Assembly: GCF_014280175.1 (NCBI RefSeq)
Contig: NZ_CP047931.1
Span: 870,001-902,000, forward strand
DNA from: Synechococcus sp. A15-28
GTDB lineage: Bacteria > Cyanobacteriota > Cyanobacteriia > PCC-6307 > Cyanobiaceae
Length of the DNA: 32,000 bases
Reading direction: 5' to 3'
Position 1 is the stretch's first letter, and each line of letters opens with the position of its first letter. The notes under the pieces were generated by a model. That model worked only from the letters and a program-made list of their open reading frames with translations, had not been told where the DNA came from and did not search any database. Made by a program: the position numbers and the translations under genes. Positions 366 through 22,374 of the stretch are shown piece by piece.

Positions 366-375
366 CTGATGAGAA

Positions 376-1921: not shown

Positions 1922-1929
1922 CGAGTGTC

Positions 1930-2850: not shown

Positions 2851-2855
2851 TGCCT

Positions 2856-2894
2856 GCTTGACGTTCAGACGTCCAAGCATCCTCAATCTTTTTT
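2856..2894 (+). terminator. Possible hairpin terminator after znuA
   Basis: GCTTGACGT-TCAG-ACGTCCAAGC imperfect hairpin (one bulged C) at 2856-2878, followed about 10 nt later by a T-run at 2889-2894. The spacing to the T-run is not ideal. Confidence 0.3.
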
Positions 2895-2919
2895 CCTCTC
2901 TCTCAACATTTTTTCTCCC

Positions 2920-5996: not shown

Positions 5997-6009
5997 GCCA
6001 TCCCCCGGA

Positions 6010-6966: not shown

Positions 6967-7045
6967 GTTCTGGCAGTTATACCTGAATGGATTCTCACAG
7001 CTTTACCAGCCATGGCGATGGCGCACTGTGCGACGTTGAAGGCTG

Positions 7046-7345
7046 GTGCGGGAGCACGCGGTGCCGTTACGGAGGGTGTTGTCAGGGCTGGTGTTGCTCT
7101 CAACCCTTGGTGCGGCTGCTCATGCTCAGACCCTCGACCAACGCTTTTTCCAGGTGCAGCTGCTGCTGGATCAGATCCAGCTGGCGGCCTCGACTGGAGA
7201 CGCCGCTGGGGTGTGTGCCCTGTCCCGCCGTGCCAACGACCGCTTGCTCGACATTCTTCCGGCCCTGCAGCGGCAGCGCCCTGGGCTTGATCACGCGGCT
7301 CTCCAGGACCGGATTCTTCTGGGGTTCAGCCGCTGCGATCGGTAG
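7046..7345 (+). CDS. Small hypothetical secreted protein
   Basis: 99-aa ORF with a GTG start and a signal-like N-terminus (VLSGLVLLSTLGAAAHA|Q). No family recognised, and a high-GC shadow ORF cannot be excluded. Confidence 0.4.
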   Translation: MREHAVPLRRVLSGLVLLSTLGAAAHAQTLDQRFFQVQLLLDQIQLAASTGDAAGVCALSRRANDRLLDILPALQRQRPGLDHAALQDRILLGFSRCDR

Positions 7346-7404
7346 GTCCACTCATTGCTGAGCGCTGATCCGCGATCCAGCTTGTTGTCAGTGAATGCAC
7401 TGCG

Positions 7405-7710
7405 ATGGAATTGATCCAGACCTTTCAGAACCGTCTGCTGCGCTATGAGTCGACGGCGCTACGGGATCGCCAGGCCCATTTCAGCGCTGCACGCAATCTG
7501 GCGCGGGCCCAGTTTCTGCTCGGGGATGCTGAACTCAGTCAGCGGTTGTGGCAGGACGTCGCCGATCGGGGGCTGGATGTCGAGCGGATTGAACAGCTGA
7601 TGTACGGCTGCTGGTTTCAGGACGATCCAGAAGCCATGGCTGAGGCCGATGCGGCGTATCAGAGCCGGACGGCACCGCCCGAATCACCAGGCATTTTCGA
7701 GCACTGCTGA
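7405..7710 (+). CDS. Hypothetical protein (101 aa)
   Basis: ATG-initiated ORF lying in the gap between flanking genes, with helical TPR-like composition. No family recognised. Confidence 0.45.
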   Translation: MELIQTFQNRLLRYESTALRDRQAHFSAARNLARAQFLLGDAELSQRLWQDVADRGLDVERIEQLMYGCWFQDDPEAMAEADAAYQSRTAPPESPGIFEHC

Positions 7711-7738
7711 TGGCTTTGCCGCCAGGTTTTGAGTTGCG

Positions 7739-8452
7739 GTGAACATCCTGCTGCTGCGCCCAGGGGACAACTGGCTTGATGCGACCACGGTGCACATTAC
7801 TGATCACAGGGCTGATCACCTCCGCCAGGTGTTGCGATCAGTTGTGGGGGAGTTGATCCGGGTCGGCGTTGTGGGGGGGCAGCGGGGTGATGCACGGATC
7901 CAAGCGATCGATGCCACCGGCGTGACCCTCAGGGTTGCACTCAACGAACCGCCCCCGCCACGGCACCGATTCGACATCGTCCTGGCCCTACCGCGCCCGA
8001 AGATGCTGCGCCGGATCCTGCGCACCGTGGCGGAATACGGGGTTTGCAACCTCTTCCTGATCAACAGCGCCCGGGTGGAGAAGAGCTTCTGGCAAACCCC
8101 GCTTCTGTCGACCGACAAGGTGGAGGAGGCCCTGATGGCGGGGATGGAGCGGGCCCGGGACACCGTGGCGCCGGTGGTCCATCAGCACCGGTTGTTTCGC
8201 CCTTTTGTGGAGGATCAACTGTCGACGATCTGCGCCGGTCGCCCCTGCTGGCTGGCGGAGATGGGATCAGCCCTGGCCCTTTCAGCGACCCCCGCCGTAC
8301 CGGCGGTGGTGATGATCGGTCCGGAGGGAGGCTTTGTTCCCTTCGAATTGGAGTTGGCCCAGTCGGTGATCGCGCAGCCGGTGCATCTGGGCACTCGGGT
8401 GCTCAGTGTGGATACGGCATTGACGGCCGCATTGGCGCTGGGTTGGCGATGA
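7739..8452 (+). CDS. rsmE: 16S rRNA (uracil1498-N3)-methyltransferase, RsmE family
   Basis: 237 aa with a PUA-like N-terminal part and a SPOUT C-terminal part carrying IGPEGGF...E motifs typical of RsmE. GTG start. Confidence 0.8.
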   Translation: MNILLLRPGDNWLDATTVHITDHRADHLRQVLRSVVGELIRVGVVGGQRGDARIQAIDATGVTLRVALNEPPPPRHRFDIVLALPRPKMLRRILRTVAEYGVCNLFLINSARVEKSFWQTPLLSTDKVEEALMAGMERARDTVAPVVHQHRLFRPFVEDQLSTICAGRPCWLAEMGSALALSATPAVPAVVMIGPEGGFVPFELELAQSVIAQPVHLGTRVLSVDTALTAALALGWR

Positions 8453-8796
8453 TGGATGGCAACGTCAACACTGCATCGATGGGTGAGATGAACGACCAGG
8501 CCGGACTGGAGGCGTTGGTGGCAGATCTGGGCAGCGGCAATGTGATCGATGCCGAGCTGCTGGAGGGTTGTTCGGTAGAGGCCCATGAGCTGGATGAGAT
8601 GGGACCCGAGGAGGCCGCCCAGGTCGCTGCCCACTGTTTTGCCACCTTGTTTGGCCAGACCGTGGAGTCCGCTCAAGGCAGCGAGGCCGATGCGGATGCA
8701 GGCCGCTGGGCCGGAACGCTGGACGGCTTTGGGTTCGTGATAAGCCGGGATGACCTGGGGGACCTGGTGCTGGACTTCAGCGGGCCGGCGTCCTGA
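8449..8796 (+). CDS. Small acidic hypothetical protein
   Basis: ATG at 8449 overlaps the rsmE stop (ATGATGG). The 115-aa product is strongly acidic (MMDGNVNTASMGEMNDQAGLEALVADLG...). The upstream part of ORF 8044..8796 is an alternative frame of rsmE and was discarded. Confidence 0.5.
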   Translation: MMDGNVNTASMGEMNDQAGLEALVADLGSGNVIDAELLEGCSVEAHELDEMGPEEAAQVAAHCFATLFGQTVESAQGSEADADAGRWAGTLDGFGFVISRDDLGDLVLDFSGPAS

Positions 8797-9058
8797 TCAG
8801 CAGCACGAGTCCGGAGACGGTCACCACGACGGTGAGCCCCCCGAGGATCACCGAATAAATCGGTTGAAGGTTGATCGGCCCGAAGTCTCCGGTGTGGATC
8901 TTCAGCAGCCAGAAGGCATCGATGTCATTCTCCAGGAGCAAGCTGTAAAGGGAACCGGTTCCAGCCGTCAGCAACAGCGGTGCTGCAGCGATCGGCACCA
9001 GCCAGCGGTGCAGGCGTCTAGCCTGGCGCTGTTGATTGCGGTTGGGCTGCCTCGTCAT
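8777..9058 (-). CDS. Small membrane protein (two hydrophobic segments)
   Basis: 93-aa ORF with a basic N-terminus and two TM-like segments (WLVPIAAAPLLLTAGTG and VILGGLTVVVTVSGLVLLI). Its start overlaps the stop of the upstream (9055..9264) gene by 4 nt. Confidence 0.5.
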   Translation of the reverse strand: MTRQPNRNQQRQARRLHRWLVPIAAAPLLLTAGTGSLYSLLLENDIDAFWLLKIHTGDFGPINLQPIYSVILGGLTVVVTVSGLVLLIRTPAR

Positions 9059-9264
9059 TGCTTGCGCATCTGCTGATGCAACTCCCGTTCATCGGAGCAG
9101 GGCATCCAACGACCGTTGTTCTGGTGAACCGTGGAGCAACCGATCTCCACCGCGCGGCTCATGGCCTCGGCTTCGTTTTCGTACATCCCCTTGCGATGGG
9201 CCTGAGCCCAACCGCTGTAGAGAAGGGATGTGCCAAGCAGCGCGAAGAGAGCGAACCGATGCAT
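9055..9264 (-). CDS. Small secreted protein with a DUF3721-like motif
   Basis: The internal ATG at 9264 gives MHRFALFALLGTSLLYSGWAQA| as a signal peptide. The mature part contains GCSTVHQNNGRWMPC, which resembles the G-C-x-G-x-H-x-x-G-x-x-W-M-P motif of small marine-cyanobacterial DUF3721 proteins. Confidence 0.55.
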   Translation of the reverse strand: MHRFALFALLGTSLLYSGWAQAHRKGMYENEAEAMSRAVEIGCSTVHQNNGRWMPCSDERELHQQMRKQ

Positions 9265-9280
9265 TGAACCGGACCCTGGA

Positions 9281-9538
9281 TCAACGGCCTTCGCAGTGCC
9301 GGAAAGCCTTGAGTTCGTTGATTCTGCCAGGTCCCTGCTGGCTGCCGGGATTAATGGCATCACGCATCTGGATCTGCGCATCGACGCAACGGTTGAAGCG
9401 GTGATGTCTGACCGCCTGAGGAATGAGCAGCAGCGCCATGGCGAACAGGCTCAGGCTGCTGAAAGCAGCCAGCACGGGGTAGGCGTGGGCTCGCACCATC
9501 TCCCGGGCGGAAAGGGACTGATTGATGTGGTCGGTCAT
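9281..9538 (-). CDS. Hypothetical membrane-anchored protein
   Basis: ORF 9281..9550 with a likely ATG at 9538 and one TM-like segment (YPVLAAFSSLSLFAMALLLIP). No family recognised. Confidence 0.35.
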   Translation of the reverse strand: MTDHINQSLSAREMVRAHAYPVLAAFSSLSLFAMALLLIPQAVRHHRFNRCVDAQIQMRDAINPGSQQGPGRINELKAFRHCEGR

Positions 9539-9636
9539 GACCTGGCACATTGCTTAGTCATTCTGGAGTGATGCTGATTGAGCCTTGCGTGGCCGGTAGC
9601 TTGTGGAGCCGATCCGAGCCCAGGGCCACACACCAC

Positions 9637-9791
9637 GTGGTGAGCCAATCCCGTTCTGCGAATCCTGCCGACCAACGCTGGGGTTTCTGGCCGCTGCTGC
9701 CACTTAGCTCTTAGTTGCAGGAACAGTTCTGAAGGGCTTGTCCCTGAGTTGTCCCAAGTTTTTTGTGCAACTGGGCCGATTTGTGGCCAAG
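9637..9791 (+). repeat. att-like unit A1: degenerate 5' fragment of the DUF4336-like gene + 26-nt core + conserved arm
   Basis: 9660-9701 aligns to 21210-21251. The core CGCTGGGGTTTCTGGCCGCTGCTGCC is identical at 9676-9701, 13515-13540 and 21226-21251. After the core it continues ACTTAGCT...GTCCCTGAGTTGTCCC...TTTTTTGTGCAACTGG, which matches 13541-13613 with about 10 mismatches in about 73 nt by eye. Confidence 0.85.
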
Positions 9792-9872
9792 CGAGCCTCA
9801 GCACTGCTGACCGATCTCCTGATCCTGCTTTTGAGTTAGGTGGAGCTGTTTTTTTGTCGTGGCTGTCGAATT

Positions 9873-10054
9873 ATCCCTGCCTTGATCCATTCTACCTCTG
9901 AATCACTGCATCGATAGTGAACGTTGTTGCTGGTAAGTAAGAATCCTGGAGATCAATGCTGATGTTTCTTGGCGTTGCTACTAATTAATTGTATTCACTA
10001 ATAGACAGCTTGAGATTCTTGTGCCTGATGTGTTTCTTTCGTTCTGTGTGCCTG
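9873..10054 (+). repeat. att-like unit A2: strongly decayed, AT-enriched copy of gene upstream region + 5' end + arm
   Basis: TCCCTGCCTTGATCCATTCTACCTCTGAATCACTGCATCGATAGTGAACGTTGTTGCTGG... aligns with 21141-21200 (ACCCTGACCTGATCCATTCCTCTGCAGAATCGCTGCATTGATGGTGAGCGTGGTGGCTGG...). GAATCCTGGAGATCAATGCTGATGTTTCTTGGCGTTGCT aligns with GAATCCTGCGGATCAGCGCTGGGGTTTCTGGCCGCTGCT. The following ACTAATTA...TCTTGTGCCTGATGTGTTTC...TGTGTGCCTG is a degenerate arm. Confidence 0.65.
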
Positions 10055-10327
10055 TTTAATTCATGATGAAGCTCGACAGGATGGCCTTATATGAGTTTAC
10101 GACTCTCTTGAGCTAGCAAAGAAATTAATGGTTGCACAGTAAATTCTGCTTTTCTTAGGCTCAAGTTGATATTTGGGATTCAAATTAATTATGTCTTTCA
10201 GACTTCCAACTATCTGTGGATCTTTCAATAAATTGCAGGCTCGGCTTTGCGGGCAGCCAGTGGCTTCGGCAAAGCAGTCACTACCACCCTCGTTTCTTCT
10301 AGCTTTGTTGCAGGAAAGGTTCTACAC

Positions 10328-11044
10328 ATGTCTTCTGGCTGGACCTCGATGCAACGTGATCGGCAGCCCGAAGTCATGGACCAGCCGGGGCTCGATCCAG
10401 CCGAGCACGACCGAGCCCTTCAAGGTCTTCGTCGTATCAACGGAATCAGTCGCTGTGTGCCAGGGCTGTTTCGTCACGTAGAGGCGCTCGCAGGTGAGAG
10501 TCCAGCCACTCAGCTGAGCGTGCTTGAGCTGGCTTGCGGAGGTGGCGATACGGCGATTGAGCTTGCTGCGCTTGCCCGTAGACGCGATTTGGATGTATTG
10601 GTTCAAGCCTGCGATCTGAATCCTGAAGCGGTGCGTCTCGCCCGCCGCAATGTGGCCAGATCAGACAGCAACGTTGGTGTGTTTGTTGCTGATGCTTTGG
10701 ACCCGTCTGAATCCAAACAATTTGACGTGGTGTACTGCACCCTTTTTGTTCACCATCTCGATCCACCCGATGTGGTGCGCCTACTCAAAGGGATGACAGC
10801 TAGGGCTCGTCGACTTGTGATTGTCGATGATCTAATTCGCAGCCGTCTTGGGTATTCCTTGGCTTGGATGGGTACACGACTGCTGAGTCGATCCTGGGTG
10901 GTTCATCACGATGGTCCACTGTCGGTGAAGGGAGCTTTTACTCCTTCAGAGATCCTGGACCTCGCCTCTCAAGCTGGATTGCACGATTGTGTCTTGGAAC
11001 GGACCTGGCCCGAGCGCTACCGGCTCTGCTGGAGACCCCACTGA
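10328..11044 (+). CDS. Class I SAM-dependent methyltransferase
   Basis: SAM motif I VLELACGGGD and an acidic loop after beta-2 (ACDLN). ATG at 10328 is preferred over the ORF-track start at 10247. The next gene starts 2 nt after its stop. Confidence 0.8.
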   Translation: MSSGWTSMQRDRQPEVMDQPGLDPAEHDRALQGLRRINGISRCVPGLFRHVEALAGESPATQLSVLELACGGGDTAIELAALARRRDLDVLVQACDLNPEAVRLARRNVARSDSNVGVFVADALDPSESKQFDVVYCTLFVHHLDPPDVVRLLKGMTARARRLVIVDDLIRSRLGYSLAWMGTRLLSRSWVVHHDGPLSVKGAFTPSEILDLASQAGLHDCVLERTWPERYRLCWRPH

Positions 11045-11045
11045 C

Positions 11046-12191
11046 ATGCAAAGCAATTGGGATGTAATCGTGATAGGGGCAGGAGTTGCCGGAGGCTTGG
11101 CAGCCTTCGATTGTGCAAATCGCGGCCTGCGAGTTCTGCTCGTCGAAAAACGGTCCTTCCCTCGCTGGAAGGTGTGTGGTTGCTGCTTTAACGCCAATGC
11201 CTTGGCAGCTCTGACTGCCACAGGCCTCCCGAACTTCTTTGATGATCAGGGTGCCGTGCCCCTCGATCAACTTCGTCTTGGTTGGGGTGGCAAGTCGCTC
11301 AAGCTTGAGTTGCCAGGCGGTTGGGCACTTTCGCGGGAGCGCTTCGATCAGGCTTTGGTCAACGCGGCTGAGGCTGCTGGTGCAACAGTGCGCTTTCAAA
11401 CCGGTGCCGTGCTTGAGGAGATCACTCCCGATGGGCGAATGGTGCGATTACGACCGCCGGGTGATGCTCCCATTGAACGGATCAGGGCCCGTGTGGTTCT
11501 CGTTGCAGCCGGACTGCAGCACCAGGTGATGTCCCCCTCCCATGCGGCCAGCTCGAGGAGCACCCCGGAATCGAGGCTTGGGGCAGGCTGCCTCATCAAT
11601 GATGACGACGGCTCCTACGAGTCAGGGGCGATTCATATGGCCATTGGCCAGCGTGGCTATGTCGGCTTGGTTCGACGTGAGGACTGTGCTCTCAACCTGG
11701 CGGCCGCTTTCGACCGCGCTGTGGTCAAGTCGTCTGGCGGTGTGGCGCGTGCGGCACAACTTGTTCTGACTCAAGCCGGCTTCACTTTGCCTCGAAGATT
11801 GGAGTCGTCTCGTTGGCAATTAACTCCTGCGCTCACCCGTCGTGCTGGTTTGTTCGCTGGGGATCGCTTTTTGTTGCTTGGCGACGCGACCGGTTATGTG
11901 GAACCGTTTACCGGTGAGGGTATGGCGTGGGCTCTCGCCGCTGGGGCGGCGGTTGCTCCATTTGTGGAGGAGGCTCAGGGTGAATGGTCAGCGGATCTCG
12001 AGCGTCGCTGGCAAAGGAGGTTGGTGGATCTGACGATCAGCCGTCAACGGGTTTGCAGTGTGTTGTCGACGTTGTTACGACAACCGCTCACCACAAATGT
12101 GTTGTTCAACCTTGGGTGCCAATGGCCTGCGATCCCGCAGCGCATTATTCGCAGCCTCAACCGGGTATCTCCTCTGATGGCGAGTTCCTAA
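11046..12191 (+). CDS. FAD-dependent oxidoreductase/hydroxylase (geranylgeranyl-reductase / UbiH-like family)
   Basis: ATG at 11046 gives MQSNWDVIVIGAGVAGGLAAFDCANRGLRVLLVEKR (GxGxxG plus acidic end of beta-2). A later GDATGYVEPFTGEGM motif (GD-x6-P-x-x-G-x-G) is typical of flavoprotein hydroxylases. Confidence 0.8.
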   Translation: MQSNWDVIVIGAGVAGGLAAFDCANRGLRVLLVEKRSFPRWKVCGCCFNANALAALTATGLPNFFDDQGAVPLDQLRLGWGGKSLKLELPGGWALSRERFDQALVNAAEAAGATVRFQTGAVLEEITPDGRMVRLRPPGDAPIERIRARVVLVAAGLQHQVMSPSHAASSRSTPESRLGAGCLINDDDGSYESGAIHMAIGQRGYVGLVRREDCALNLAAAFDRAVVKSSGGVARAAQLVLTQAGFTLPRRLESSRWQLTPALTRRAGLFAGDRFLLLGDATGYVEPFTGEGMAWALAAGAAVAPFVEEAQGEWSADLERRWQRRLVDLTISRQRVCSVLSTLLRQPLTTNVLFNLGCQWPAIPQRIIRSLNRVSPLMASS

Positions 12192-12194
12192 ACC

Positions 12195-13283
12195 ATGCCT
12201 CTCATCCTTCATGGCATTGGTACGGCGGTGCCATCTCGGCGACTGAGCCAGGCAGATGCCGTGCAGGTGGCACATCGCATTAATGCCGAAACCCCTGAGC
12301 AGGTAAGGCTGATGACACGCATCTATCAGAAAACCAAGGTGCTCAGCCGTGGAAGTGTGCTGCTGGAGAAGGATGGAGACGATGGCGCGATCCAGGAGCG
12401 TCTCAGTTTCTACGGCGAAGAAAGCCCTGGTACCGCCGAACGGATGCAGGCGTTTGAGGATCATGCCGGTGAGCTGGCTCTTGAGGCCGCTGCAAAGGCG
12501 CTAAGCGATAGCGATATCTCAGCCACGGCGATCACGCATCTCGTCACTGTCAGTTGCACCGGTTTTCAGTCACCAGGTGTTGACCTTTTCTTGATTGAAA
12601 AGCTTGATCTATCGCCGAGTGTTCAGCGAACCCATATCGGATTCATGGGATGCCACGCTGCGCTGAATGGCTTGCGTGTTGCCCACGCCTTTGCGGAGAT
12701 GGATCCCAAGGCTGTTGTTCTGCTGTGCGCTGTAGAGCTTTGCAGCCTCCATATGGCTTATGGCTGGCACCCAGAGCAGGTTGTTGCCAACGCTTTGTTT
12801 GCCGATGGGGCGGCTGCCGTTGTCGCCTCCGTCAATCCTGTCCCTACCCATCAGACCTTGGCGTTGCGACGCAGTGGCTCGATGGTGATTCCAAACAGCT
12901 CAGATCTGATGCACTGGGAGATTGGCGACCATGGTTTTGCGATGGGCTTGTCGCCCCTTGTTCCGGAAACGGTTGGCGCTGCCTTGTTGCCCTGGTTGCG
13001 AGATTGGCTCAAAGAGCAGGCCATTGATCTTGAGGCGGTGACGAGCTGGGCTGTTCATCCAGGGGGCCCCAAGATTCTCTCGACCTGTGCCGAGGTTTTG
13101 TCGCTGGACCCAGGCCTACTGCACGAGTCCAGAGGCATACTTCAGGATCACGGCAACATGTCATCCGCAACGATTCTGTTCATCCTTGAACGGTTGAGGC
13201 GGCGGGAATGTTCCGGTCCTTGTCTTGCACTTGCCTTTGGCCCTGGGCTGAGTGCTGAGGTAGCACTTTTTGATTTTCAATAA
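12195..13283 (+). CDS. Type III polyketide synthase (chalcone/stilbene synthase superfamily)
   Basis: Catalytic Cys in VSCTGFQSPG, His in WAVHPGGPKIL and Asn in HGNMSSATILF. 362 aa. It starts 3 nt after the oxidoreductase stop. Confidence 0.9.
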   Translation: MPLILHGIGTAVPSRRLSQADAVQVAHRINAETPEQVRLMTRIYQKTKVLSRGSVLLEKDGDDGAIQERLSFYGEESPGTAERMQAFEDHAGELALEAAAKALSDSDISATAITHLVTVSCTGFQSPGVDLFLIEKLDLSPSVQRTHIGFMGCHAALNGLRVAHAFAEMDPKAVVLLCAVELCSLHMAYGWHPEQVVANALFADGAAAVVASVNPVPTHQTLALRRSGSMVIPNSSDLMHWEIGDHGFAMGLSPLVPETVGAALLPWLRDWLKEQAIDLEAVTSWAVHPGGPKILSTCAEVLSLDPGLLHESRGILQDHGNMSSATILFILERLRRRECSGPCLALAFGPGLSAEVALFDFQ

Positions 13284-13452
13284 CAGTCAATCTTCGTTTT
13301 GCCTGTTTCACTGCCTGAGGAATTAATACCGCATCTGAACATCTCTGTCTGATCAGATGATGTTGCTCGGCGATGTCACACCCGGGTAACCCTAAGGCGT
13401 CAGTGGCGTAAATCTTTTCAATGATTTTGTGCTGCCTTGCCCCTTTCCTTCA

Positions 13453-13632
13453 GCAGAATCACTGCATTGATGGGGAGCATGGTGGCCGGAGCTGGGGTGA
13501 ATCCTGCAGATCAGCGCTGGGGTTTCTGGCCGCTGCTGCCACTTAGCTATCAGTTGCGGCAACAGGTCTGAGAGGTTTGTCCCTGAGTTGTCCCTCGTTT
13601 TTTGTGCAACTGGTGCTGATGTTGTGCAACTG
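13453..13632 (+). repeat. att-like unit B: well-preserved copy of gene upstream region + first 24 codons + core + conserved arm
   Basis: 13453-13540 aligns with 21164-21251 with about 6 mismatches in 88 nt. It diverges exactly after ...CTGCTGCC into the arm shared with unit A1. The arm contains a direct repeat of TGTGCAACTG (13603-13612 and 13623-13632). Confidence 0.9.
13470..13571 (+). pseudogene. Truncated 5' fragment of the DUF4336-like gene
   Basis: It translates MGSMVAGAGVNPADQRWGFWPLLP (compare MVSVVAGAGVNPADQRWGFWPLLP at 21181), then reads into arm sequence and stops at 13569-13571. Confidence 0.8.
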
Positions 13633-13707
13633 AGGCCTTTGTGGTTTTTGAAGCTGCCTTGTCAATCGTTTCCGATTGATTGGCTCTGATCAGTTGAGTC
13701 CCAGGTT

Positions 13708-15015
13708 CTAAGACCCCAGGATTGCTGTGCATTCCAGGCGTTCTTGGCAGGCATCACGGCGTTGTAAACGCAGATTGATCACTTGGGCGAGATAACGAGC
13801 ATCGTCGCTGACGCCGCAGAAGCGCCCAGACCCCCAGGTGTGCAGCCAAGGCAAGCCAATGAAATACAGCCCAGCGCTTTGGGTAACGCCGCGATCATGG
13901 GCCGGTAAACCACTCCCATCAAAAACGGGCGCCTCAATCCAGCTGAAGTTACTTCGGTAACCCGTGCACCAGATCACTGCGGCGAGCGGCTGTGAGCTCA
14001 GATCAATTCCTGGATCTTCGATGGGAGACGGCTGCCAACAGGGGGAATACGCCGGTTCGACTGGTGCATCGATCTCTTCCTGTTCGATCCAGCTGTCAAT
14101 GCTGGTGCGGATGCGGCAGTACACCGCATCGGCTTGATCAAGATTGTTGGCCAGGTCATCTGCGAAACCAACGTGTTCGCGGGAGAGGGTCAAGAGTCGG
14201 CCATGCAAATGCATGCCTTCCATCGCCCGTCGACGCAGATCAATCTCACGACCGCCGTCTCGGCCAGTGAGGTAGTGATTGGTCTTGGCTCGGACCGAGC
14301 GGGGATCCGCGTGATCGCTGATCGGCATGGCGTAGTAGCCCATGCGATCCAACCAATCCACAACGTCTTTGCCGCGATAGCGGCGTGGAGATCGTGGCGC
14401 TCGACCCACGCTCAGATGCACGGAACGACCTGCCAGGTGGAGATCTTCAGCGATCTGACTGCCGGATTGGCCATTGCCGACGACCAGCACTGGACCATCG
14501 GGGAGTGCCTCGGGATTGCGGTAGGACCGAGCATCCAGTTGCTGCACAGATGCTGGTAGGCGTTCGGCGTATGGATGACGTCGGGGGATGTGATAGCCCC
14601 CAGTGGCAACGATGACGTGTTCGGCCTCAATGACTCCCTCACTGGTGTCGAGGCGATACCCGTTCACAATGGGCTTCAACCGCGAGACGGCCACGCCCTC
14701 GCGAAGGTCGGCATTGACATGCTGAGCGAAGCGCTGGAGATAGTCCACAATCGACGACTTGCCCATGAAGCCTTCGGGCTGATCACCGTTGTAGGGAAAG
14801 TCGGGCAGACGGCATTGCCAGTTCGGTGTGACGAGGCAGAAGGAATCCCAGCGCTGTTGGTCCCAGGCGTACGCCACACGATTCTTCTCAAGAACGAGGG
14901 GTCGTATGCCTTGTTGCTGCAAGGCATAGGCAGCAGAAAGACCCGCCTGACCAGCACCAATGACCACTGCCGAACGTCGCTGGATTGACGTGTTGATTTG
15001 CGCGACCACTTGCAA
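13708..15015 (-). CDS. Flavin-dependent monooxygenase/oxidoreductase, MSMEG_0569-like (Nit1C cluster member)
   Basis: Two dinucleotide-binding motifs (VVIGAGQAGLSAA and VVGNGQSGSQIA), as in FMO/class B-like flavoproteins. TTG start. It is divergent from the rest of the cluster. Confidence 0.85.
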   Translation of the reverse strand: MQVVAQINTSIQRRSAVVIGAGQAGLSAAYALQQQGIRPLVLEKNRVAYAWDQQRWDSFCLVTPNWQCRLPDFPYNGDQPEGFMGKSSIVDYLQRFAQHVNADLREGVAVSRLKPIVNGYRLDTSEGVIEAEHVIVATGGYHIPRRHPYAERLPASVQQLDARSYRNPEALPDGPVLVVGNGQSGSQIAEDLHLAGRSVHLSVGRAPRSPRRYRGKDVVDWLDRMGYYAMPISDHADPRSVRAKTNHYLTGRDGGREIDLRRRAMEGMHLHGRLLTLSREHVGFADDLANNLDQADAVYCRIRTSIDSWIEQEEIDAPVEPAYSPCWQPSPIEDPGIDLSSQPLAAVIWCTGYRSNFSWIEAPVFDGSGLPAHDRGVTQSAGLYFIGLPWLHTWGSGRFCGVSDDARYLAQVINLRLQRRDACQERLECTAILGS

Positions 15016-15188
15016 CGTCGACTTGCAAAAAACCTTTTAAAGGTATTGCTCGCTAAACGAACGATGCTGTAGTGAAAAGCACGGAATCGTCAATTGAGTG
15101 ATCTGCTGAATTCGTTGATTTGGTTGCAATAGGCACATCGCTGATCGCCGCAGAAGAGTCACGATTGAATAGCTTATAAAAAATTTAC

Positions 15189-15671
15189 ATGCCTGCCGTA
15201 GATCGTCCCGCCAATCAGCCTGGCGACTTCCTGGTTGACTACGAGGAAAAGGTTTTTCCTGATGTGAAAGCCGAGCCTGGTGAAAAGGCTCTTGTCACAT
15301 TTCATACCGTCGCTTTCGAGGGCTCGATTGGCCTGGTGAATTTGCTTCAAGCCAGTCGGCTGATCAACAAGGGCTTCGAAACCTCCGTTCTGCTCTATGG
15401 TCCAGGCGTGACATTGGGCGTGATGCGCGGCTTCCCTAAGCTTGGTGATGCGGCATTTGATGGTCACCTGAATTTCAATGCACGCCTGCAAAAATTCATG
15501 GATCAAGGAGGGAAAGTGTATGCCTGTCGCTTTGCTTTGCAGGCCTTGTATGGCCACGGTGAAAAAGCGTTGATGCCTGGAATCACTCCTGTGAATCCAC
15601 TTGATGTTCTCGATATTGTCTTGATGCACCGGAAGGAAGGCGCCTTCATTCTTGACACCTGGACGCTCTGA
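15189..15671 (+). CDS. MSMEG_0572/Sll0783-like protein (DsrE-like fold; Nit1C 'hypothetical 1')
   Basis: 160-aa protein immediately upstream of the nitrilase. Its sequence ([20 protein letters not shown]...VLLYGPGV...KVYACRFAL) fits the DsrE/DsrF-like small proteins that head Nit1C clusters. Confidence 0.7.
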
Positions 15672-15693
15672 TTCTTTCCGGAGGCTCTCCACT

Positions 15694-16692
15694 GTGACCA
15701 TAGTCAAAGTTGCTGCCGCGCAGATCCGTCCCGTCCTGTTCAGCCTGGACGGATCCCTGCAAAGAGTGCTGGATGCCATTGCCGAAGCCGCGGCTCAAGG
15801 CGTGGAATTGATCGTTTTTCCTGAAACGTTTCTGCCCTATTACCCCTATTTCTCGTTTGTTGAACCTCCGGTCTTGATGGGGAGATCCCATCTGGAGTTG
15901 TATGAGCAGGCTGTGGTGGTTCCTGGCCCTGTCACCGATGCCGTTGCGGCTGCTGCCCGTCAGCACGGCATGCAGGTTCTGTTGGGCGTCAACGAACGTG
16001 ATGGCGGAACGCTTTACAACACCCAGTTGTTGTTTAACAGCTGTGGAGAACTTGTTCTGAAGCGGCGAAAAATCACGCCGACTTACCACGAGCGGATGGT
16101 CTGGGGCCAAGGGGACGGCTCAGGTCTCAAGGTGGTGCAGACGCCTTTGGCTCGTATTGGCGCTTTGGCCTGCTGGGAGCACTACAACCCCCTAGCCCGT
16201 TACGCCTTGATGGCCCAGGGGGAGGAGATCCACTGCGCTCAGTTCCCGGGCTCATTGGTGGGCCCGATCTTCTCGGAACAGACCGCCGTCACCATGCGCC
16301 ATCACGCTCTTGAGGCCGGGTGTTTCGTGATTTGTTCCACCGGTTGGTTGCATCCCGATGACTATGCATCGATCACGTCTGAGTCGGGTCTTCACAAGGC
16401 GTTTCAAGGGGGGTGTCACACCGCTGTGATCAGCCCTGAGGGCCGTTATCTGGCAGGTCCTTTGCCGGATGGAGAGGGGTTGGCGATCGCCGATCTCGAT
16501 CTTGCCCTGATTACCAAGCGCAAACGGATGATGGACAGCGTCGGGCATTACAGCCGCCCAGAACTGCTGTCGTTGCAGATCAACAGTTCTCCTGCGGTTC
16601 CCGTTCAAGACATTTCGACTGCATCGGTTCCATTGGATCCGGCCACAGCTCCCGATGCCCTGTCATCGATGGAGGCCTTGAACCATGTCTGA
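15694..16692 (+). CDS. Nitrilase (Nit6803/Sll0784-type, branch 1 nitrilase)
   Basis: Glu-Lys-Cys triad contexts VFPETF, KRRKITP and LACWEH. GTG at 15694 is preceded by GGAGG at 15679-15683 and is preferred over the ORF-track start at 15652, which overlaps the previous gene. Confidence 0.9.
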
Positions 16693-17773
16693 GCTTGGTC
16701 GCCTGGTAACTGAATTGCAGGTGCATGGCGTGCGGGTTGACCCTGTGAAGGGCAATCCGGGACGACGGGGAGGTGCAGGTCCCTCCGACCACCGTGCCTT
16801 GGATCTCGATGGCACCACCGTGATGGTGCCCGTCTACAACGATGCCTCCGCTGGGTCTCCCTACAAGTTGGCATCCTCCGGTGCTGCTCTTGCCATTGAG
16901 GGACCCGAGCAGCATTGCACTGCTGAGATCACAACACCACGTGAGCCAGCGTTTTACGGCTTGAGCACAGCCGATGGAATCTCCTACCGATCGATTGCCT
17001 TGCTGCACAGCAAGGATGTATTGGCCACAACGTTGCTGCAGACCTGCATTCGTTTTCGGGATCGATCCCAGTCGTGCCAGTTTTGCGCGATTGAACAGTC
17101 GATCGAGGACGGGGCCTTGGTGCGCAAATCGCCTGAGCAGGTGGCGGAAGTGGCGGCAGCGGCTGTCCGACTGGACGGGGTCAAGCAACTGGTGATGACC
17201 ACCGGAACACCCAACAGTGACGATCGCGGAGCCCGTCTGATGGCTGAAACCGCGGAAGCCGTCAAGCGTCGGGTGAATCTACCGATCCAGGGCCAATGTG
17301 AACCTCCGGAAGATCCGCGCTGGTACCAGCGCATGAAGGACGCTGGAATTGACAGTCTCGGCATGCATCTGGAGGTGGTGGAGCCGGATGTGCGGCGTCG
17401 GATCCTTCCCGGGAAATCGGAGCTCAGTCTTGAGCGTTACTACGAGGCCTTCGCGGATGCCGTTGCGGTGTTCGGTCGCGGTGAAGTATCCACGTATCTG
17501 CTGGCCGGCCTGGGTGACAGCAAGGAGGCCTTGCTCGACTGCTGCCTACGGTTGATTGAACTCGGGGTGTACCCCTTTGTGGTGCCCTTTGTGCCGATCT
17601 CCGGAACACCCTTGGAGAGCCATCCATCACCGGACAGCTCCTTCATGGTTGATGTGTATCAGGGTGTTGCCGCGATGTTGAAGGCGGGGGACCTTCGATC
17701 CGAGCGGATGTCCGCCGGTTGTGCCAAATGCGGGGCTTGCTCCGCACTCTCATTGTTCGAGCAAGTGTCGTAG
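16685..17773 (+). CDS. Radical SAM protein, MSMEG_0568-like (Nit1C member)
   Basis: The only N-terminal Cys cluster is [14 protein letters not shown] (C-x9-C-x2-C), followed by a TIM-barrel-like core (VMTTGTP..., GMHLEVV). C-terminal CAKCGAC motif. It overlaps the nitrilase stop by 8 nt. Confidence 0.8.
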
Positions 17774-17775
17774 TC

Positions 17776-18444
17776 ATGGTTTCGTGTCTTGATCCCAGCA
17801 GCTGCGGCATTGGCCGCAGCATCAGTTCCGCGCCCCACTTATTCACGCCCTCGGTGCGCGCTGGCATTGGTATCGATGCCGATGATTTCCGTCTGTCTCC
17901 CACCGCGAGTTCCAATCGTTTCACCTTTCATCTTCTGCGTGCCGACGCGCCGCTGATCCAGGGGTATTGGTCGTTGCGGCGCAACATCTTCTGCAGCGAG
18001 CAGCATGTGTTTGAAGCGTCTGATTGTGATGATCTCGACGCGATCGCCTACCCCATTGCGGCGGTGCATCACAGTTCAGAGCCAGCGCATGACGATGGCG
18101 TTGAAACCGATGTAGTTGGCGTGGTGCGGATTGTGGAAACAGAGCCGCGACTTTGGTATGGCGGTCGCCTCGGCGTGCATTCCGATTTCCGCCGTCATAA
18201 CCAGATTGGCAAGGGGTTGATCTGGAAGGCTGTCACCACTGCCAATGGCTGGGGATGTGACCGTTTCCTGGCCACGGTGCAGATTCAGAACGTCCGCTTT
18301 TTCCGCCGCTTGCACTGGACCTCGATCGATCAACTTGAGATTCGGGGCATACCCCATCACCTGATGGAAGCGGATCTCAACTACTACCTGCCCTCATGTG
18401 AGCAACGACCGTTCGCCTCGCATCACCTGTCAACTGCGGCGTGA
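17776..18444 (+). CDS. GNAT family N-acetyltransferase, MSMEG_0567/Sll0786-like (Nit1C member)
   Basis: ATG at 17776 lies 2 nt after the radical SAM stop. Acetyl-CoA motif A-like RRHNQIGKGL. The upstream part of ORF 17719..18444 overlaps the previous gene and was discarded. Confidence 0.8.
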   Translation: MVSCLDPSSCGIGRSISSAPHLFTPSVRAGIGIDADDFRLSPTASSNRFTFHLLRADAPLIQGYWSLRRNIFCSEQHVFEASDCDDLDAIAYPIAAVHHSSEPAHDDGVETDVVGVVRIVETEPRLWYGGRLGVHSDFRRHNQIGKGLIWKAVTTANGWGCDRFLATVQIQNVRFFRRLHWTSIDQLEIRGIPHHLMEADLNYYLPSCEQRPFASHHLSTAA

Positions 18445-19418
18445 ATAACGTGGGCCTTGTGAACGCCTTGCGCAGGACCAGTGGTCTGTTGGCGAAGCGC
18501 GATATTCGCTCGGCCGCTGCCACCTTTTACCATCAGCCCTTCCCGCAGCTGGGTTTGGCCGGGATGCTGGGTGATGACGCTGCTGTGCTGCCTGCGCAGA
18601 GCGGTCAACTGTTGTTGGCCTGTGAGGGGATGAATCCAGAGCTCGTTGAAGAGGACCCCTGGTTTGCAGGTTGGAGTGGGGTGCTGGTCAATCTCAGTGA
18701 CATCGCGGCTATGGGGGGGCGACCGCTGGCGCTTGTGAACAGCGTGTGGAGCGGCCATGTGGAGGGGATGAGCAGCCTTCTGGATGGGATGCGTTTTGCG
18801 TGTGATCGCTTCGGTGTCCCCATGGTTGGTGGCCACTCCAACCAGCAGAGCTTTTATCAGGCGCTCTCGGTGTCTGTTCTCGGTGTCGCGGAGGGTCCCG
18901 TCCTGTCCGCTCGCGCAGCACGTTCTGGCGATGAGCTGTGGATGCTGGTGAACAAAACAGGAGGCTTCTATCGCCACTACCCCTTCTGGGATGCTGCGAC
19001 CCATGCCCCGCCTGAGCGTCTTCGTGCGCAACTTGCCTTAATGCCCACGCTGGCCGCTGAACGGCTGGTGCACGCCGCCAAGGACATCAGCATGGGAGGC
19101 ATCACCGGCACCGCTGTGATGTTTGCCGAGGCGTGTGGTCATCAGTTAATCCTTGACCTGGATGCCGTGGAACGACCTGAAGACATCCGCGACGAAGCTT
19201 GGCTGACCTGCTTCCCGAGCTTCGGATATCTGCTGGCTGTCGCCCCTTCGCGTACTGCAGCCTTGACGCAATTGATCTCACGTGATTCCACGTTGATTTG
19301 TTGCCGTGTCGGACACTTTGCCATGGGCGATTGCAGCGTGCTGTTGCAACATTCAGGTGAGACCCATCATTTCTGGGATGGAGGCGATCCGCTCACTGGT
19401 TTTGGCTGTGTTCGATGA
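18441..19418 (+). CDS. AIR synthase-related (PurM/ThiL/HypE-fold) protein, Sll0787-like (Nit1C member)
   Basis: N-terminal GDDAAVL motif and a PurM-like two-domain length (325 aa). The GTG start overlaps the GNAT stop (GTGA). Confidence 0.8.
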   Translation: MNNVGLVNALRRTSGLLAKRDIRSAAATFYHQPFPQLGLAGMLGDDAAVLPAQSGQLLLACEGMNPELVEEDPWFAGWSGVLVNLSDIAAMGGRPLALVNSVWSGHVEGMSSLLDGMRFACDRFGVPMVGGHSNQQSFYQALSVSVLGVAEGPVLSARAARSGDELWMLVNKTGGFYRHYPFWDAATHAPPERLRAQLALMPTLAAERLVHAAKDISMGGITGTAVMFAEACGHQLILDLDAVERPEDIRDEAWLTCFPSFGYLLAVAPSRTAALTQLISRDSTLICCRVGHFAMGDCSVLLQHSGETHHFWDGGDPLTGFGCVR

Positions 19419-19470
19419 AACAGTCATGAGCAATGTTGCCGTGCAGAATCGATGAGTAAAGCAACGATCC

Positions 19471-19752
19471 ATGCCTGAAGTTCGCTTTCAACTGGAGTGG
19501 CCAGACGGGCAATCCAGTACGTTATATTCGCCATCAACGGTGATTCTCGATTATTTCCGACCTGGCGATTCGCTGTTGGTTTCTGAGCTTGAGGCGCGCG
19601 GAGTTGAAGCTCTTCGTGCAGCGTCAGAGCGCGTTCGTGCGAGGTTTGGCTTTGCCTGTACGCGTGCGGACGAAGAAGAATCTCTTCTGCGCCAATGGGT
19701 CTCTCGCTACAGCTCCAATGACACGGTTCATGTGACCAGTCAACTTTCCTGA
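19471..19752 (+). CDS. MSMEG_0570-like small protein (Nit1C 'hypothetical 2')
   Basis: 93-aa ORF in the position and of the size of the second conserved hypothetical protein of Nit1C clusters ([13 protein letters not shown]...). Confidence 0.65.
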
Positions 19753-19778
19753 TTGTCATTTTTACGGATTTCTTTTTT

Positions 19779-20246
19779 ATGTCTGGAAAACCTCCTTTCC
19801 CCCCGTTCACCCTGGAAACGGCTCGCCAGAAAGCGCGCATGGCGGAAAATGCTTGGAACAGTAAGGATCCCGACAAGGTCTCATTGGCTTACACCGAAGA
19901 CAGCGTGTGGAGAAATCGCAGTGAATTCATTCACGGCCGCGCTGAAATCCTCGCTTTTCTACAGCGCAAATGGGCCAAAGAACTGGATTACAAACTGATC
20001 AAAGAAGTCTGGGCCTGTAGCGATAACCGGATTGCTGTGCGCTTTCAGTACGAGTGGCATGACGCCGAGGGCCAGTGGTTCAGAGCCCACGGCAACGAGA
20101 ACTGGGAGTTTGCCGAGAACGGCTTGATGCGCAGACGTGAAGCCAGTATTAATGATGTTCCGATCGCTGAGAGCGACCGCCTGTTCAGCTGGGGGGATGG
20201 TCCGCGTCCGGACGATTTCCCGGGTTTGACGGACCTGGGACTCTGA
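19779..20246 (+). CDS. DUF1348-like NTF2/SnoaL-fold protein
   Basis: 155 aa. [27 protein letters not shown]...[25 protein letters not shown] is characteristic of the DUF1348 NTF2-like family. Confidence 0.7.
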
Positions 20247-20250
20247 ATTG

Positions 20251-21039
20251 ATGGGGCAAGGCCGCTACTCACTGCCGCAGGCAATCACCTCCATCGTGGA
20301 CCTGCGGCTGTTCATGGAACACCACGTGTTCGCGGTGTGGGATTTCATGCTCCTGCTCAAGACCTTGCAGCAGCACCTGGCTCCTTCCGGCGTTCCCTGG
20401 GTGCCACCAACCCATCCCGAGATTGCTGGCCTGGTGAACAGCTTGGTAGCGGAAGAGGAATGTGATCTTCTGCCTGGCAGCCTTGGGGGACCTCTTCATC
20501 TCTCCCATTTCGGGATTTACAGGCGAGCAATGGTGGAGATCGAGGCGAACACTTCGGTCATCGATGCGGTGTTGGAGTTGACGTCGTGTGGTGATCTCGC
20601 CTCTGCTTTGCACCATCCGGAAATTCCAGCGCCATCGGCTCGTTTCCTACGCACTACCCAGGCGTTGATCGCCTCCGGGGAAGTGCACGCGCTGGCGGCG
20701 GCGTTTGCCTATGGCCGGGAGCTGTTGGTTCCCAATCTGTTTCGCGGGCTGCTCGATCGCCTGACCGTGCTGGAGCTGCCTTGTCCGACTTTGCGCTGGT
20801 ACCTCGAGCGCCACATCGTTCTGGATGGCGACAGCCATGGGCCGTTGGCGGAAACGATGGTGCTCACCCTGGCCGGCAACGACCCTGCGGCGCATCAGAC
20901 GGTGCAGACCGTGAGGAGGCAGGTGCTTGCTGAGCGTTCTGCGTTCTGGGATGCGATTGAGAACCAGCTTCGGGACAGGTCTCAGACCAATCGATCCGGT
21001 GGCGAGCATTCACAGATGCTCTCCTCTGTTCTGGTCTGA
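20251..21039 (+). CDS. DUF3050-like protein (heme-oxygenase-like helical fold)
   Basis: HHVFAVWDFMLLLKTLQ near the N-terminus is typical of DUF3050. ATG at 20251 (TTG at 20248 in the ORF track). It starts 2-5 nt after the previous stop. Confidence 0.65.
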   Translation: MGQGRYSLPQAITSIVDLRLFMEHHVFAVWDFMLLLKTLQQHLAPSGVPWVPPTHPEIAGLVNSLVAEEECDLLPGSLGGPLHLSHFGIYRRAMVEIEANTSVIDAVLELTSCGDLASALHHPEIPAPSARFLRTTQALIASGEVHALAAAFAYGRELLVPNLFRGLLDRLTVLELPCPTLRWYLERHIVLDGDSHGPLAETMVLTLAGNDPAAHQTVQTVRRQVLAERSAFWDAIENQLRDRSQTNRSGGEHSQMLSSVLV

Positions 21040-21180
21040 CCTAACCCACACCGCATTGGCACAGGCGGCTTGTTTGGTGTTTTGGAGTGAGTTTGTGTCG
21101 TGTTGGCTGAGCTGATTGCCCCATCTGGTTTCCGGTTTTGACCCTGACCTGATCCATTCCTCTGCAGAATCGCTGCATTG

Positions 21181-22374
21181 ATGGTGAGCGTGGTGGCTGG
21201 AGCTGGTGTGAATCCTGCGGATCAGCGCTGGGGTTTCTGGCCGCTGCTGCCGCTCTATCCCTATGGCCGCCGCCACACGGTGTTCAGTGAGTTGATCCCT
21301 GGCCAGCTCTGGAGTCTGGAGCAGCTGCAGGGGGTGTATTACGTGGCCGTTCCGGTGCGGCTCACCGTTGCCAAGGTGCCCGGTGGCTTGATGTTGGTGA
21401 ACCCACTGCCGCCCACCGGTGAGGTTCGCCAAGCCATTGCCGGGCTGGAACAGCAGCATGGGCCCGTGCGCACGATCGTGCTGCCCACCGCCTCTGGTCT
21501 GGAGCACAAGCTGCCCCTCGGCCCCCTGGCCCGCGCCTTCCCGGGTGCAGAAATTTGGGTGTGTCCGGGTCAGTGGAGTTTTCCGGTGCAGTTGCCTCTG
21601 GCCTGGTTGGGCGTTCCGGCACGCCGCACCAAGGTCTTGTTCGACGATGGCGTCCCCCATGGCGATGTTTGTGAGTGGTTGTCGTTGGGACCCCTCGACC
21701 TTGGTGTCGGTCGTTTCCAGGAGATCTCCTGTTTTCATCGTCCGTCAGGCGCTCTGCTGGTCACCGACGCCCTTGTGGGCATCAGTGTTGAGCCGCCTTC
21801 GCTGTTTGATCTCGACCCCACGCCTCTGTTGTTCCACGCCCGCGAGCGGGGTGATCAGCCTTTGCACGACACGCCCGAGGCGCGTCGACGTGGTTGGGCG
21901 CGGCTGGTGCTGTTTGCCTCCTACCTGCGGCCGGAACCGTTGGAGGTGCCAACCCTCAAGGAGGTGTTTCGCCATGCCTTTCGCCCCGGTCTGCGATCGG
22001 CCAAAGCCCACTTCGGGCTCTATCCCTTTCGGTGGAAGCCGGGTTGGGAGGCCGCCGCTGCTGAGTTGATGAGGGAAGCGGAGCCCAAAATTCAGGTGGC
22101 GCCGGTGTTGGAGCGGTTGGTGTTACCCCGTGCCAAGAAATCTCTGCTCGATTGGTTGGAGCAGCTGGGTCAATGGAGCGATCTGCGCTGGCTGGTGTCA
22201 GCCCACTACAGCGCTCCCATCGGTTTCACGACAGGAACGTTGGCTTCACTTGTTCGGGATCTGACCGAACGCCCCTGGGCACCCAGCACCAGCAACTGGG
22301 AGTTTCTTGGATCGATTGATCAACGCTTGCTGGATCTCGGCGTAGTGCCTGAGCAACCTCGTCTCAGAAGTTGA
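21181..22374 (+). CDS. DUF4336-like protein (metallo-beta-lactamase-like fold); target gene of the island integrations
   Basis: About 397 aa with sequence conserved in cyanobacteria and plastid-bearing eukaryotes (WGFWPLLPLYPYG..., VTDALV). Its upstream region and first ~24 codons are the sequence reiterated at 9637, 9873 and 13453. Confidence 0.75.
   Translation: MVSVVAGAGVNPADQRWGFWPLLPLYPYGRRHTVFSELIPGQLWSLEQLQGVYYVAVPVRLTVAKVPGGLMLVNPLPPTGEVRQAIAGLEQQHGPVRTIVLPTASGLEHKLPLGPLARAFPGAEIWVCPGQWSFPVQLPLAWLGVPARRTKVLFDDGVPHGDVCEWLSLGPLDLGVGRFQEISCFHRPSGALLVTDALVGISVEPPSLFDLDPTPLLFHARERGDQPLHDTPEARRRGWARLVLFASYLRPEPLEVPTLKEVFRHAFRPGLRSAKAHFGLYPFRWKPGWEAAAAELMREAEPKIQVAPVLERLVLPRAKKSLLDWLEQLGQWSDLRWLVSAHYSAPIGFTTGTLASLVRDLTERPWAPSTSNWEFLGSIDQRLLDLGVVPEQPRLRS

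Follow-up and report, generated by a model that had tools for sequence, protein, structure and literature searches.

Why does the beginning of a single protein-coding gene recur upstream of the gene itself? The question is raised by a stretch of 32,000 nucleotides (nt) from the genome of Synechococcus sp. A15-28 (contig NZ_CP047931.1, positions 870,001 to 902,000; the whole stretch is called the window, and coordinates are counted from its first letter), in which the 5′ end of a DUF4336 gene is met again, in varying states, at three places to the left of the intact copy. A reading of the window made without database searches (the sequence-only reading) had explained this pattern by serial site-specific integration at the gene start. 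Our analysis supports that explanation on three grounds: arms that are specific to the locus, polymorphism that breaks exactly at a short core, and loci in which a predicted recombinase is linked to the site. Positions 9637-21251 probably represent an array of integrase-less cassettes that arose by repeated site-specific recombination within the 5′ end of DUF4336, the enzyme most likely being a 407-amino-acid (aa) recombinase encoded beside the same gene in related genomes. The evidence is comparative throughout and defines the cassette ends and the core to the base.

Recurring gene starts in the window

The features of the array, named according to the proposed reading, are as follows; WH8102 is a Synechococcus strain used for comparison.

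9637-9701, forward strand: A1, displaced 5′ fragment of DUF4336, GTG start, 21 codons; core at 9676-9701
9702-9793, forward strand: arm X1, putative left end of a cassette, with TTGTCCCTGAGTTGTCCC, TTTTGTGCAACTGG and a degenerate second TGTGCAAC box; nhmmer E=2e-27
9794-9869, no strand: spacer of ~76 nt from arm X1 to A2; no open reading frame (ORF), no homology to WH8102
9870-9979, forward strand: A2, decayed upstream piece, gene start and core, 73-78% identical to 21142-21248
9980-10070, forward strand: decayed arm X2, putative left end of the hid cassette, recognized by alignment with the other arms and below nhmmer detection
10247-13283, forward strand: cargo of cassette 1 (hid), comprising methyltransferase, FAD oxidoreductase and type III polyketide synthase (Pfam)
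13442-13540, forward strand: B, putative right end of cassette 1 and former gene start (MGSMVAGAG...); core at 13515-13540
13541-13632, forward strand: arm X3, putative left end of the Nit1C cassette, with two TGTGCAACTG boxes 20 nt apart; nhmmer E=1e-27
13708-21039, no single strand: cargo of cassette 2, the Nit1C cluster (Pfam)
21137-21251, forward strand: putative right end of cassette 2, consisting of the live upstream region and the first 24 codons of DUF4336; core at 21226-21251
21181-22374, forward strand: DUF4336 gene, putative integration target with the crossover within codons ~21-24; Pfam E=2e-117

The 26-nt core, CGCTGGGGTTTCTGGCCGCTGCTGCC, has exactly three copies in the window (9676, 13515 and 21226), all on the forward strand; 100 shuffles gave no chance match, even with three mismatches allowed. 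It sits at codons ~16-24 of DUF4336, and the reading frame stays intact past the junction. Immediately 3′ of the core, A1 and B run into a common arm, and the third copy runs on as the DUF4336 reading frame.

Pairwise alignment recovered the repeat pairs that the sequence-only reading had described: 13450-13543 and 21161-21254 are 91% identical over 94 nt, 9660-9774 and 13499-13613 (core plus arm of A1 and B) 89% over 115 nt, and 9875-9933 (in A2) and 21142-21200 78%. The core is identical in A1, B and the intact gene, and the earlier estimate of about six differences between B (13453-13540) and the live copy (21164-21251) proved exact, with 6 mismatches in 88 positions. A2 is indeed heavily decayed, and so is the arm that follows it (CTTGTGCCTGATGTGTTTC in place of CTTGTCCCTGAGTTGTCCC). 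The claim that one gene start recurs in all three copies holds for B and the decayed A2; A1 specifies a different N-terminus (VVSQSRSANPADQRWGFWPLLP, from the GTG at 9637), and its homology to the gene start is confined to 9657-9701, with 4 mismatches in 45 positions. Because the N-terminus is distinct, A1 would be an older or native gene start and not a copy of the current one; it looks like the oldest displaced start and the left, attL-type junction of the array. B and the live WH8102 gene start agree at all of 99 nt and specify the same N-terminus, suggesting that B is a former start of that type, displaced when the 7,711-nt segment 13541-21251 arrived. The unit between A1 and A2 consists of ~280 nt of cassette ends almost free of cargo, and is either a deletion product or a minimal cassette.

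The right end begins sharply. Its left boundary falls at the equivalent of 21137 in ~17 copies that have unrelated DNA or cargo to the left, and its junction with the gene body is the end of the core. Within it, the conserved stretch 5′ of the DUF4336 ATG is only 44 nt long and includes CAGAAT 10 nt before the start.

An arm found only upstream of DUF4336

The arm that the sequence-only reading had recognized as common to A1 and B was confirmed, with a length of 92 nt instead of the ~73 nt given there. Over those first 73 positions the A1 and B arms differ at 10, and within the window TTGTCCCTGAGTTGTCCC and TTTTGTGCAACTGG occur in these two arms only. Twenty-eight distinct arms align without gaps over 129 columns. 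They have three conserved blocks, CTTGTCCCTGAGTTGTCCC, TTTTGTGCAACTGG and TGTGCAACTG, and conservation stops sharply 92 nt past the core. The direct repeats for which a role as recombinase arm sites had been suggested are conserved as well: TGTGCAAC and TGTCCC repeats are kept at fixed spacing in the 28 arms, and they recur between the integrase gene and DUF4336 in loci described below.

Distribution of the arm was assessed in a survey of one genome per species, which returned 62 loci; the arm profile was run on the public picocyanobacterial loci fetched (loci are given here as L numbers where needed). It detected 46 copies in 28 loci, every one of them 5′ of DUF4336 and co-oriented with the gene. 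No copy was present in the 10 kb downstream of DUF4336, or in Prochlorococcus loci. In the loci examined, the arm is thus locus-specific and not a dispersed repeat, the first of two circumstances that the sequence-only reading had named as fatal to it.

Arrays of two to five units were observed in WH 8017, WH7803, MIT S9451 and MIT S1220, the last extending over at least 34 kb. Cargo varies from unit to unit and includes RTX and SWM-repeat/SwmB-like giant proteins, DUF1214/DUF1254 pairs, a hydrolase, a sulfatase, and GAPDH with a major facilitator superfamily transporter. From genome to genome, cassettes resemble each other more closely than do the core genes that flank them, and their positions in the arrays differ, as in three pairs:

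L021 8710-10068 and L015 3707-5066: 95% identical, flank 83%; both end at the core end, followed by the gene in L021 and by an arm in L015
L056 1428-4591 and L021 4044-7171: 92.5% identical, flank 75%; gene-proximal in L056, followed by further arms in L021
L017 (WH7803) 6238-10019 and L024 (MIT S9503) 3085-6868: 87% identical, flank 73%; gene-proximal in WH7803 and one unit further out in MIT S9503

Very large minus-strand genes occur in L015 (5207-9625), L064 (2712-6971, 10252-14508 and 15304-19200) and L019 (908-2311, 2937-5660 and 6326-9532). They code for RTX-repeat, DUF4347 and SWM-repeat proteins of up to ~1,470 aa, and their 3′ ends lie within ~100 nt of an arm, suggesting that giant surface proteins are a recurrent cargo class.

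Presence and absence of cassettes in close relatives

The second such circumstance, an identical block in all relatives, was not observed either. The Nit1C cluster is missing from WH8102, whose DUF4336 is 94% identical to that of the window and directly abuts the hid cluster, and a contig of a closer relative (L079) is likewise Nit1C-free with the same hid-DUF4336 arrangement. In L075 the Nit1C cassette (99.5% identical) stops exactly at the core end, 21251, and is followed by another arm with a DUF411/DUF3721 module; other cargo is found elsewhere. Several ocean metagenome contigs also carry the Nit1C cassette at 99-100% identity. In no locus did we find, within 10 kb, an ancestral empty site in which rsmE would immediately precede DUF4336.

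In WH8102 (L003, BX548020 981930-1003123), a block of tetratricopeptide repeat (TPR) and glycosyltransferase genes (1-6422) directly precedes the decayed A2 of that strain, and the large glycosyltransferase region of WH8102 may be cargo at the DUF4336 hotspot. A different arrangement was seen in the single-cell genome AG-686-B21 (L016 346-2700), where rsmE lies between DUF4336 and DUF760; since rsmE is upstream of the array in the window, gene order around the hotspot is not fixed.

A candidate recombinase beside DUF4336

The sequence-only reading had called for a search for copies with an adjacent recombinase, and a predicted tyrosine recombinase was identified beside DUF4336 in about a dozen independent loci (L020, L026, L067-L072, L081-L085 and L090). 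In MIT S1220 (L026) and L020 it is a 407-aa ORF divergent from DUF4336 and ~114 nt from its start. The gene has this neighbor in every integrase locus with readable upstream sequence, namely KORDI-52, an MIT S9509-like contig, L070/L071 and six metagenome contigs. Two contigs of the survey, L020 (CAXQPR010000123.1) and L063 (NYVG01000051.1), are labelled as Salipiger bermudensis and Gammaproteobacteria metagenome-assembled genomes; they carry a Synechococcus DUF4336 and the integrase or an attachment unit, and so look misbinned.

The 407-aa family had no match in Pfam (E<0.01, PF00589 included), NCBIfam or PHROGs, and its sequence profile gave only chance matches against all PDB chains. The family is very small: clustering at 90% leaves 38 members, and a profile search of 1.84 billion representative proteins yielded 39 matches, none of them named. 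Searches of phage and plasmid records by tblastn and a scan of IMG/VR yielded no integrase of this family, and two distant relatives are on contigs of 1.7-3 kb with no informative context.

The assignment comes from structure prediction, carried out with P0130 as the first row. The predicted structure had a mean predicted local distance difference test (pLDDT) score of 80.5, and a Foldseek search against PDB placed tyrosine recombinases at all ranks from 1 to 12 (XerH, IntI, Cre, lambda Int and Brujita Int), with probabilities of 0.98-1.00 and E-values down to 3.8e-4. By-eye assignment of catalytic residues, invariant in 17 sequences, gave R241 (TGARG), K272 in a beta-hairpin, R354-x-x-R357-H358 and Y390; the usual second His/Trp position is apparently Ser, also by eye. 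The N-terminus is predicted to form a three-stranded sheet and a helix, a fold that appears to resemble arm-binding domains. Judging from the model, the protein is most likely a divergent tyrosine recombinase and the likely enzyme of the system.

Genes accompanying the integrase are typical of autonomous elements. They include a DUF3854/AAA_30 primase-helicase in L026 and L020, type I restriction-modification cargo with NucS- and RmuC-like genes in L067, and, in L070, a 1,995-aa helicase with small HTH_17 proteins of the excisionase/AlpA kind.

Crossover point and putative binding sites

L070 contains a complete element of ~10 kb. At one end, a displaced short start of native type (MNSENQRWGFW...) is fused to an arm; the other end consists of the integrase, the intergenic region and the live DUF4336. 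The two junctions have only CGCTGCTGCC in common, with a T/C difference just before it, which places the exchange within those ~10 nt. The 26-nt identity in the window appears to be a longer similarity between starts of one type, not the size of the crossover.

The DNA between integrase and DUF4336 carries paired boxes like those of the arm (TCCCT/TGTCCC and TTGCACA). The TCCCT/TGTCCC boxes are ~10 nt apart, and paired CTTGCACA boxes, 20 nt apart, are inverted relative to the TGTGCAAC pair of the arm. Repeated boxes flanking a short core are the layout used by arm-binding integrases, suggesting by analogy that they are binding sites. One further box lies within the ...DLSATEG... codons, so part of that N-terminus would be encoded by attachment-site DNA.

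Arm and core patterns in IMG/VR gave one match, an AT-rich viral contig (L001, IMGVR_UViG_3300028191_000047), which was rejected as unrelated by integrase search. At 540-595 it has four tandem TGTCCC-type boxes (TTTGTCCCTGATGTGTCCCTGGATTGTCTCCCGTTTGTCCCTGAGTTGTCCCTGG) and no integrase relative; these are probably a coincidence or an unrelated binding array.

Apparent exchange of the DUF4336 N-terminus

Comparison of 115 full-length DUF4336 homologs revealed two main kinds of start. A MGSVVAGAGVNPADQRWGFW-type start was present in 42, with protein bodies 70-99% identical to that of the window, and a MAGDLSATEG...WPWW-type start in 39, with bodies 69-96.5% identical; the remaining 34 had other, mostly shorter starts. 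Near-identical bodies can bear different starts. From these alignments, the N-terminus appears to be a separate mobile piece that is uncoupled from the protein body. An exact-protein look-up of the window's DUF4336 returned no record.

Proposed mechanism and alternative explanations

Each cassette would consist of a 92-nt left arm, the cargo, and a right end of ~115 nt that comprises an upstream piece of ~89 nt with the first codons and then the core. Recombination in the last ~10 nt of the core would join the incoming right end to the DUF4336 body and create a new gene start, and the previous start would be pushed upstream and fused to the incoming left arm. Repetition would give the observed order of A1, an emptied cassette, A2, the hid cassette, B, the Nit1C cassette and the gene. 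The integrase would be supplied by the autonomous relatives in other Synechococcus in which it lies beside and divergent from DUF4336. We infer that the 407-aa protein catalyzes the reaction, that movement of the integrase-less cassettes takes place in trans, and that homologous recombination at their conserved ends contributes to it. Uniform boundaries, intact outer arms and portability argue that the units spread as cassettes.

In its full form, this would be a cassette system of Synechococcus' own, in which integrase-less multi-gene cassettes with standardized 92-nt and ~115-nt ends are moved in trans by the "dark" recombinase of defense-carrying relatives and collect in integron-like arrays at DUF4336. 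We put this forward tentatively, as possible but somewhat short of an even chance.

Several observations weigh against repeated site-specific recombination by this enzyme. TM-scores of the Foldseek matches are only 0.37-0.51, for a predicted fold, and four distant relatives of the 407-aa protein fall just under the PF00589 threshold (up to 26.2 bits, cut-off 27.1). The "type 2" right end of the window has at best degenerate boxes (TTGACCCTGACCTGATCC; CTGCA...CTGCA); given this lack of clear integrase-proximal boxes, recognition in trans is hypothetical. A scan of 9500-21400, right end included, for the putative replacement promoter of the sequence-only reading gave no match to the sigma-70 consensus. 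No excised circle or free attP was detected in any collection searched, and none of 11 metagenome integrase loci was in an excised form, every readable one being integrated beside DUF4336. Finally, A2 is dead and yet common to the window and WH8102 (L003 6416-6519), which means that A2 did not serve to move the hid cassette, and L073 shows near-identity with the window across the core.

One alternative, which we consider unlikely, is that the cassettes are integrase-deleted remnants that are now fixed and are inherited vertically or with neighboring DNA, without any mobilization in trans. Decay does occur, as an integrase fossil (L018 4571-5226) and a gutted element (L019 10072-10480) inside arrays demonstrate, and the decayed A2 and its arm, the same decayed copy in WH8102 and the lack of observed circles all fit such a history. 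However, independent deletions predict varied end points, whereas ~17 right ends start at the same base and the 28 arms are of equal length. The same cassettes also occupy different array positions while exceeding their flanks in similarity between genomes, and the window's two outer arms are intact though no integrase is nearby.

Slightly less likely still is that the conserved ends serve simply as portable homology for RecA-type exchange after DNA uptake, with site-specific recombination having no present role. With 85-97% identity over 100-200 nt, the units offer sufficient homology for recombination. The identity of L073 with the window (99-100%) reaches ~750 nt past the core into DUF4336 and then drops, implying homologous and not site-specific exchange in that case. 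Similarly, window positions 9884-13543 are 98.6% identical to WH8102, compared with 92-94% for the adjoining DUF4336 and 75-86% for genes further on, and the left limit of this hid block coincides with the left edge of the dead A2, not with a core, indicating that homologous recombination also moves segments. On the other hand, several independent comparisons break exactly at the end of the core, the 10 nt shared by the L070 junctions are too short for homologous exchange, and a dedicated recombinase is tied to the site.

It is highly improbable that the repeat unit is no attachment site at all but a repeat of the dispersed kind, a terminator or small RNA, or the result of local tandem duplication at the gene start. 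In favor of this, each arm contains the end of a truncated ORF, and arms commonly come directly after the 3′ end of a gene on the minus strand; against it, all 46 copies share one locus and one orientation with unrelated cargo between them, the window has no Rfam match, and an RNA-structure explanation was rejected because the 28 arms display neither a conserved fold nor covariation.

Gene content of the window

Repeated site-specific recombination at DUF4336, the reading that we prefer, concerns a region whose composition differs from its surroundings: G+C content is 0.55-0.57 within 9.7-21.25 kb and 0.62 and 0.65 in the flanks. Pfam confirmed the gene calls of the sequence-only reading. The reported absence of an integrase gene also held, as no Pfam recombinase was found in the scanned ORFs and tblastn of the 407-aa integrase family against the window gave nothing at E<1; the window cassettes are therefore non-autonomous. 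A tRNA-based attachment site was rejected, since the window has no tRNA or tmRNA.

Gene order is rsmE, DUF3721, hid genes, Nit1C genes, DUF4336, DUF760, lepB and menD. The cargo of cassette 1 is a hierridin-type alkylresorcinol cluster. Nit1C is a nitrile/cyanide cluster. In Synechococcus it is known to be linked to niche (PMC10119275). The Nit1C cassette contains:

13708-15015, reverse strand: flavin monooxygenase
15189-15671: 160-aa ORF
15652-16692: nitrilase
16685-17773: radical SAM protein
17719-18444: GNAT protein
18441-19418: AIRS-like protein
19471-19752: 93-aa ORF
19779-20246: DUF1348 protein
20248-21039: DUF3050 protein

In L075, the Nit1C cassette is followed on its right by DUF411 and DUF3721 genes (8191-9241), and the window has a DUF3721 segment 71% similar to theirs on the left of A1 (8811-9152). 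No arm was detectable left of A1 in the window. The DUF3721 similarity suggests that the DNA left of A1 may be old island material too.

Two further observations concern the margins of the window. At 2920-4023 there is a 367-aa ORF with long His/Asp-rich runs (DHDHHDEHAEHDHDDDHH...), whose neighbors resemble a ZnuA-type solute-binding protein (1861-2850) and an ABC ATPase (1145-1837, reverse strand); it may be a metal-binding protein. In addition, G+C content falls to 0.41 just past glmU, in 31464-32000. Homology to WH8102 ends at 31463 and an ORF starts at 31621 in AT-rich DNA; a second variable region may have its boundary here.

Relationship to known mobile systems

Tycheposons of Prochlorococcus (Hackl et al., bioRxiv 10.1101/2020.12.28.424599), to which the sequence-only reading had compared the array, offer a close parallel in mode of working; tycheposon-like insertions at tRNA-Phe have been described in Synechococcus (PMC8995045). 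Like tycheposons, the autonomous relatives (L026, L020, L067 and L070) are modular elements with the integrase at one end, an optional primase/helicase module and adaptive or defensive cargo, and the window cassettes are cargo-only. Both systems push older elements inward by repeated integration at one site, building islands with partial targets and integrase fragments, and in both intact elements are far rarer than islands. Unlike the tRNA or tmRNA genes used by tycheposons, however, the target here is the 5′ end of a protein-coding gene, and most array units lack an integrase and have standardized ends, which has not been described for tycheposons. The comparison therefore stands for mechanism (stacking and remnants) and fails for family membership.

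Integration into the 5′ end of a gene, with replacement of promoter and N-terminus, is known from dusA-specific elements and from SXT at prfC. The DUF4336 elements share with these the integration within the first codons, the restoration of the frame by element DNA with an altered N-terminus, and an integrase and small directionality factor at the element ends. Those elements are proteobacterial, conjugative or plasmid-mobilized, have recognizable integrases and usually occur as single copies. In contrast, the elements described here have a cyanobacterial host, an integrase unseen by Pfam, NCBIfam and PHROGs, and arrays of up to at least five units. We know of no conjugation in the host cyanobacterium.

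The arrays also recall integrons: both have a tyrosine recombinase by the primary site, arrays of integrase-less cassettes with a conserved end, and entry of new cassettes nearest the recombinase. This parallel is one of resemblance only. The 28 arms have no conserved single-strand hairpin, the cassettes are multi-gene and in either orientation, the recombinase travels in an element with varying cargo and not on a fixed platform, and kinship with IntI amounts to a shared fold.

The hotspot was not described in the literature that we searched on DUF4336, on Synechococcus islands with integrases and on Nit1C. What sets it apart is the group of hosts, the gene targeted, an integrase family invisible to the standard protein libraries, and arrays of mostly integrase-less cassettes whose ends are standardized.

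Implications

To our knowledge, marine picocyanobacteria are without plasmids, conjugation and prophages, and how they exchange adaptive genes is a long-standing question. Tycheposons are a partial answer for Prochlorococcus, at tRNA genes; the DUF4336 locus would be a parallel system in Synechococcus, served by a recombinase family that annotation pipelines label "hypothetical". It offers a concrete vehicle for ocean-niche gene clusters such as Nit1C (PMC10119275), and may extend to the region by the motility-linked glycosyltransferase island of WH8102.

Because the ends and the core are known to the base, mobility is directly testable in cultured strains, of which KORDI-52 and MIT S1220 have the integrase, and WH8102, WH7803 and WH 8017 have cassettes only. 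The short attachment site and its integrase might, moreover, serve as a tool for inserting DNA at a defined site in marine Synechococcus. If Synechococcus does possess such a cassette system of its own, it would be a main inter-clade route for Nit1C, hierridin-type polyketide genes and SwmB/RTX-type surface giants, and ~70% of DUF4336 alleles would have an N-terminus rewritten by attachment-site DNA.

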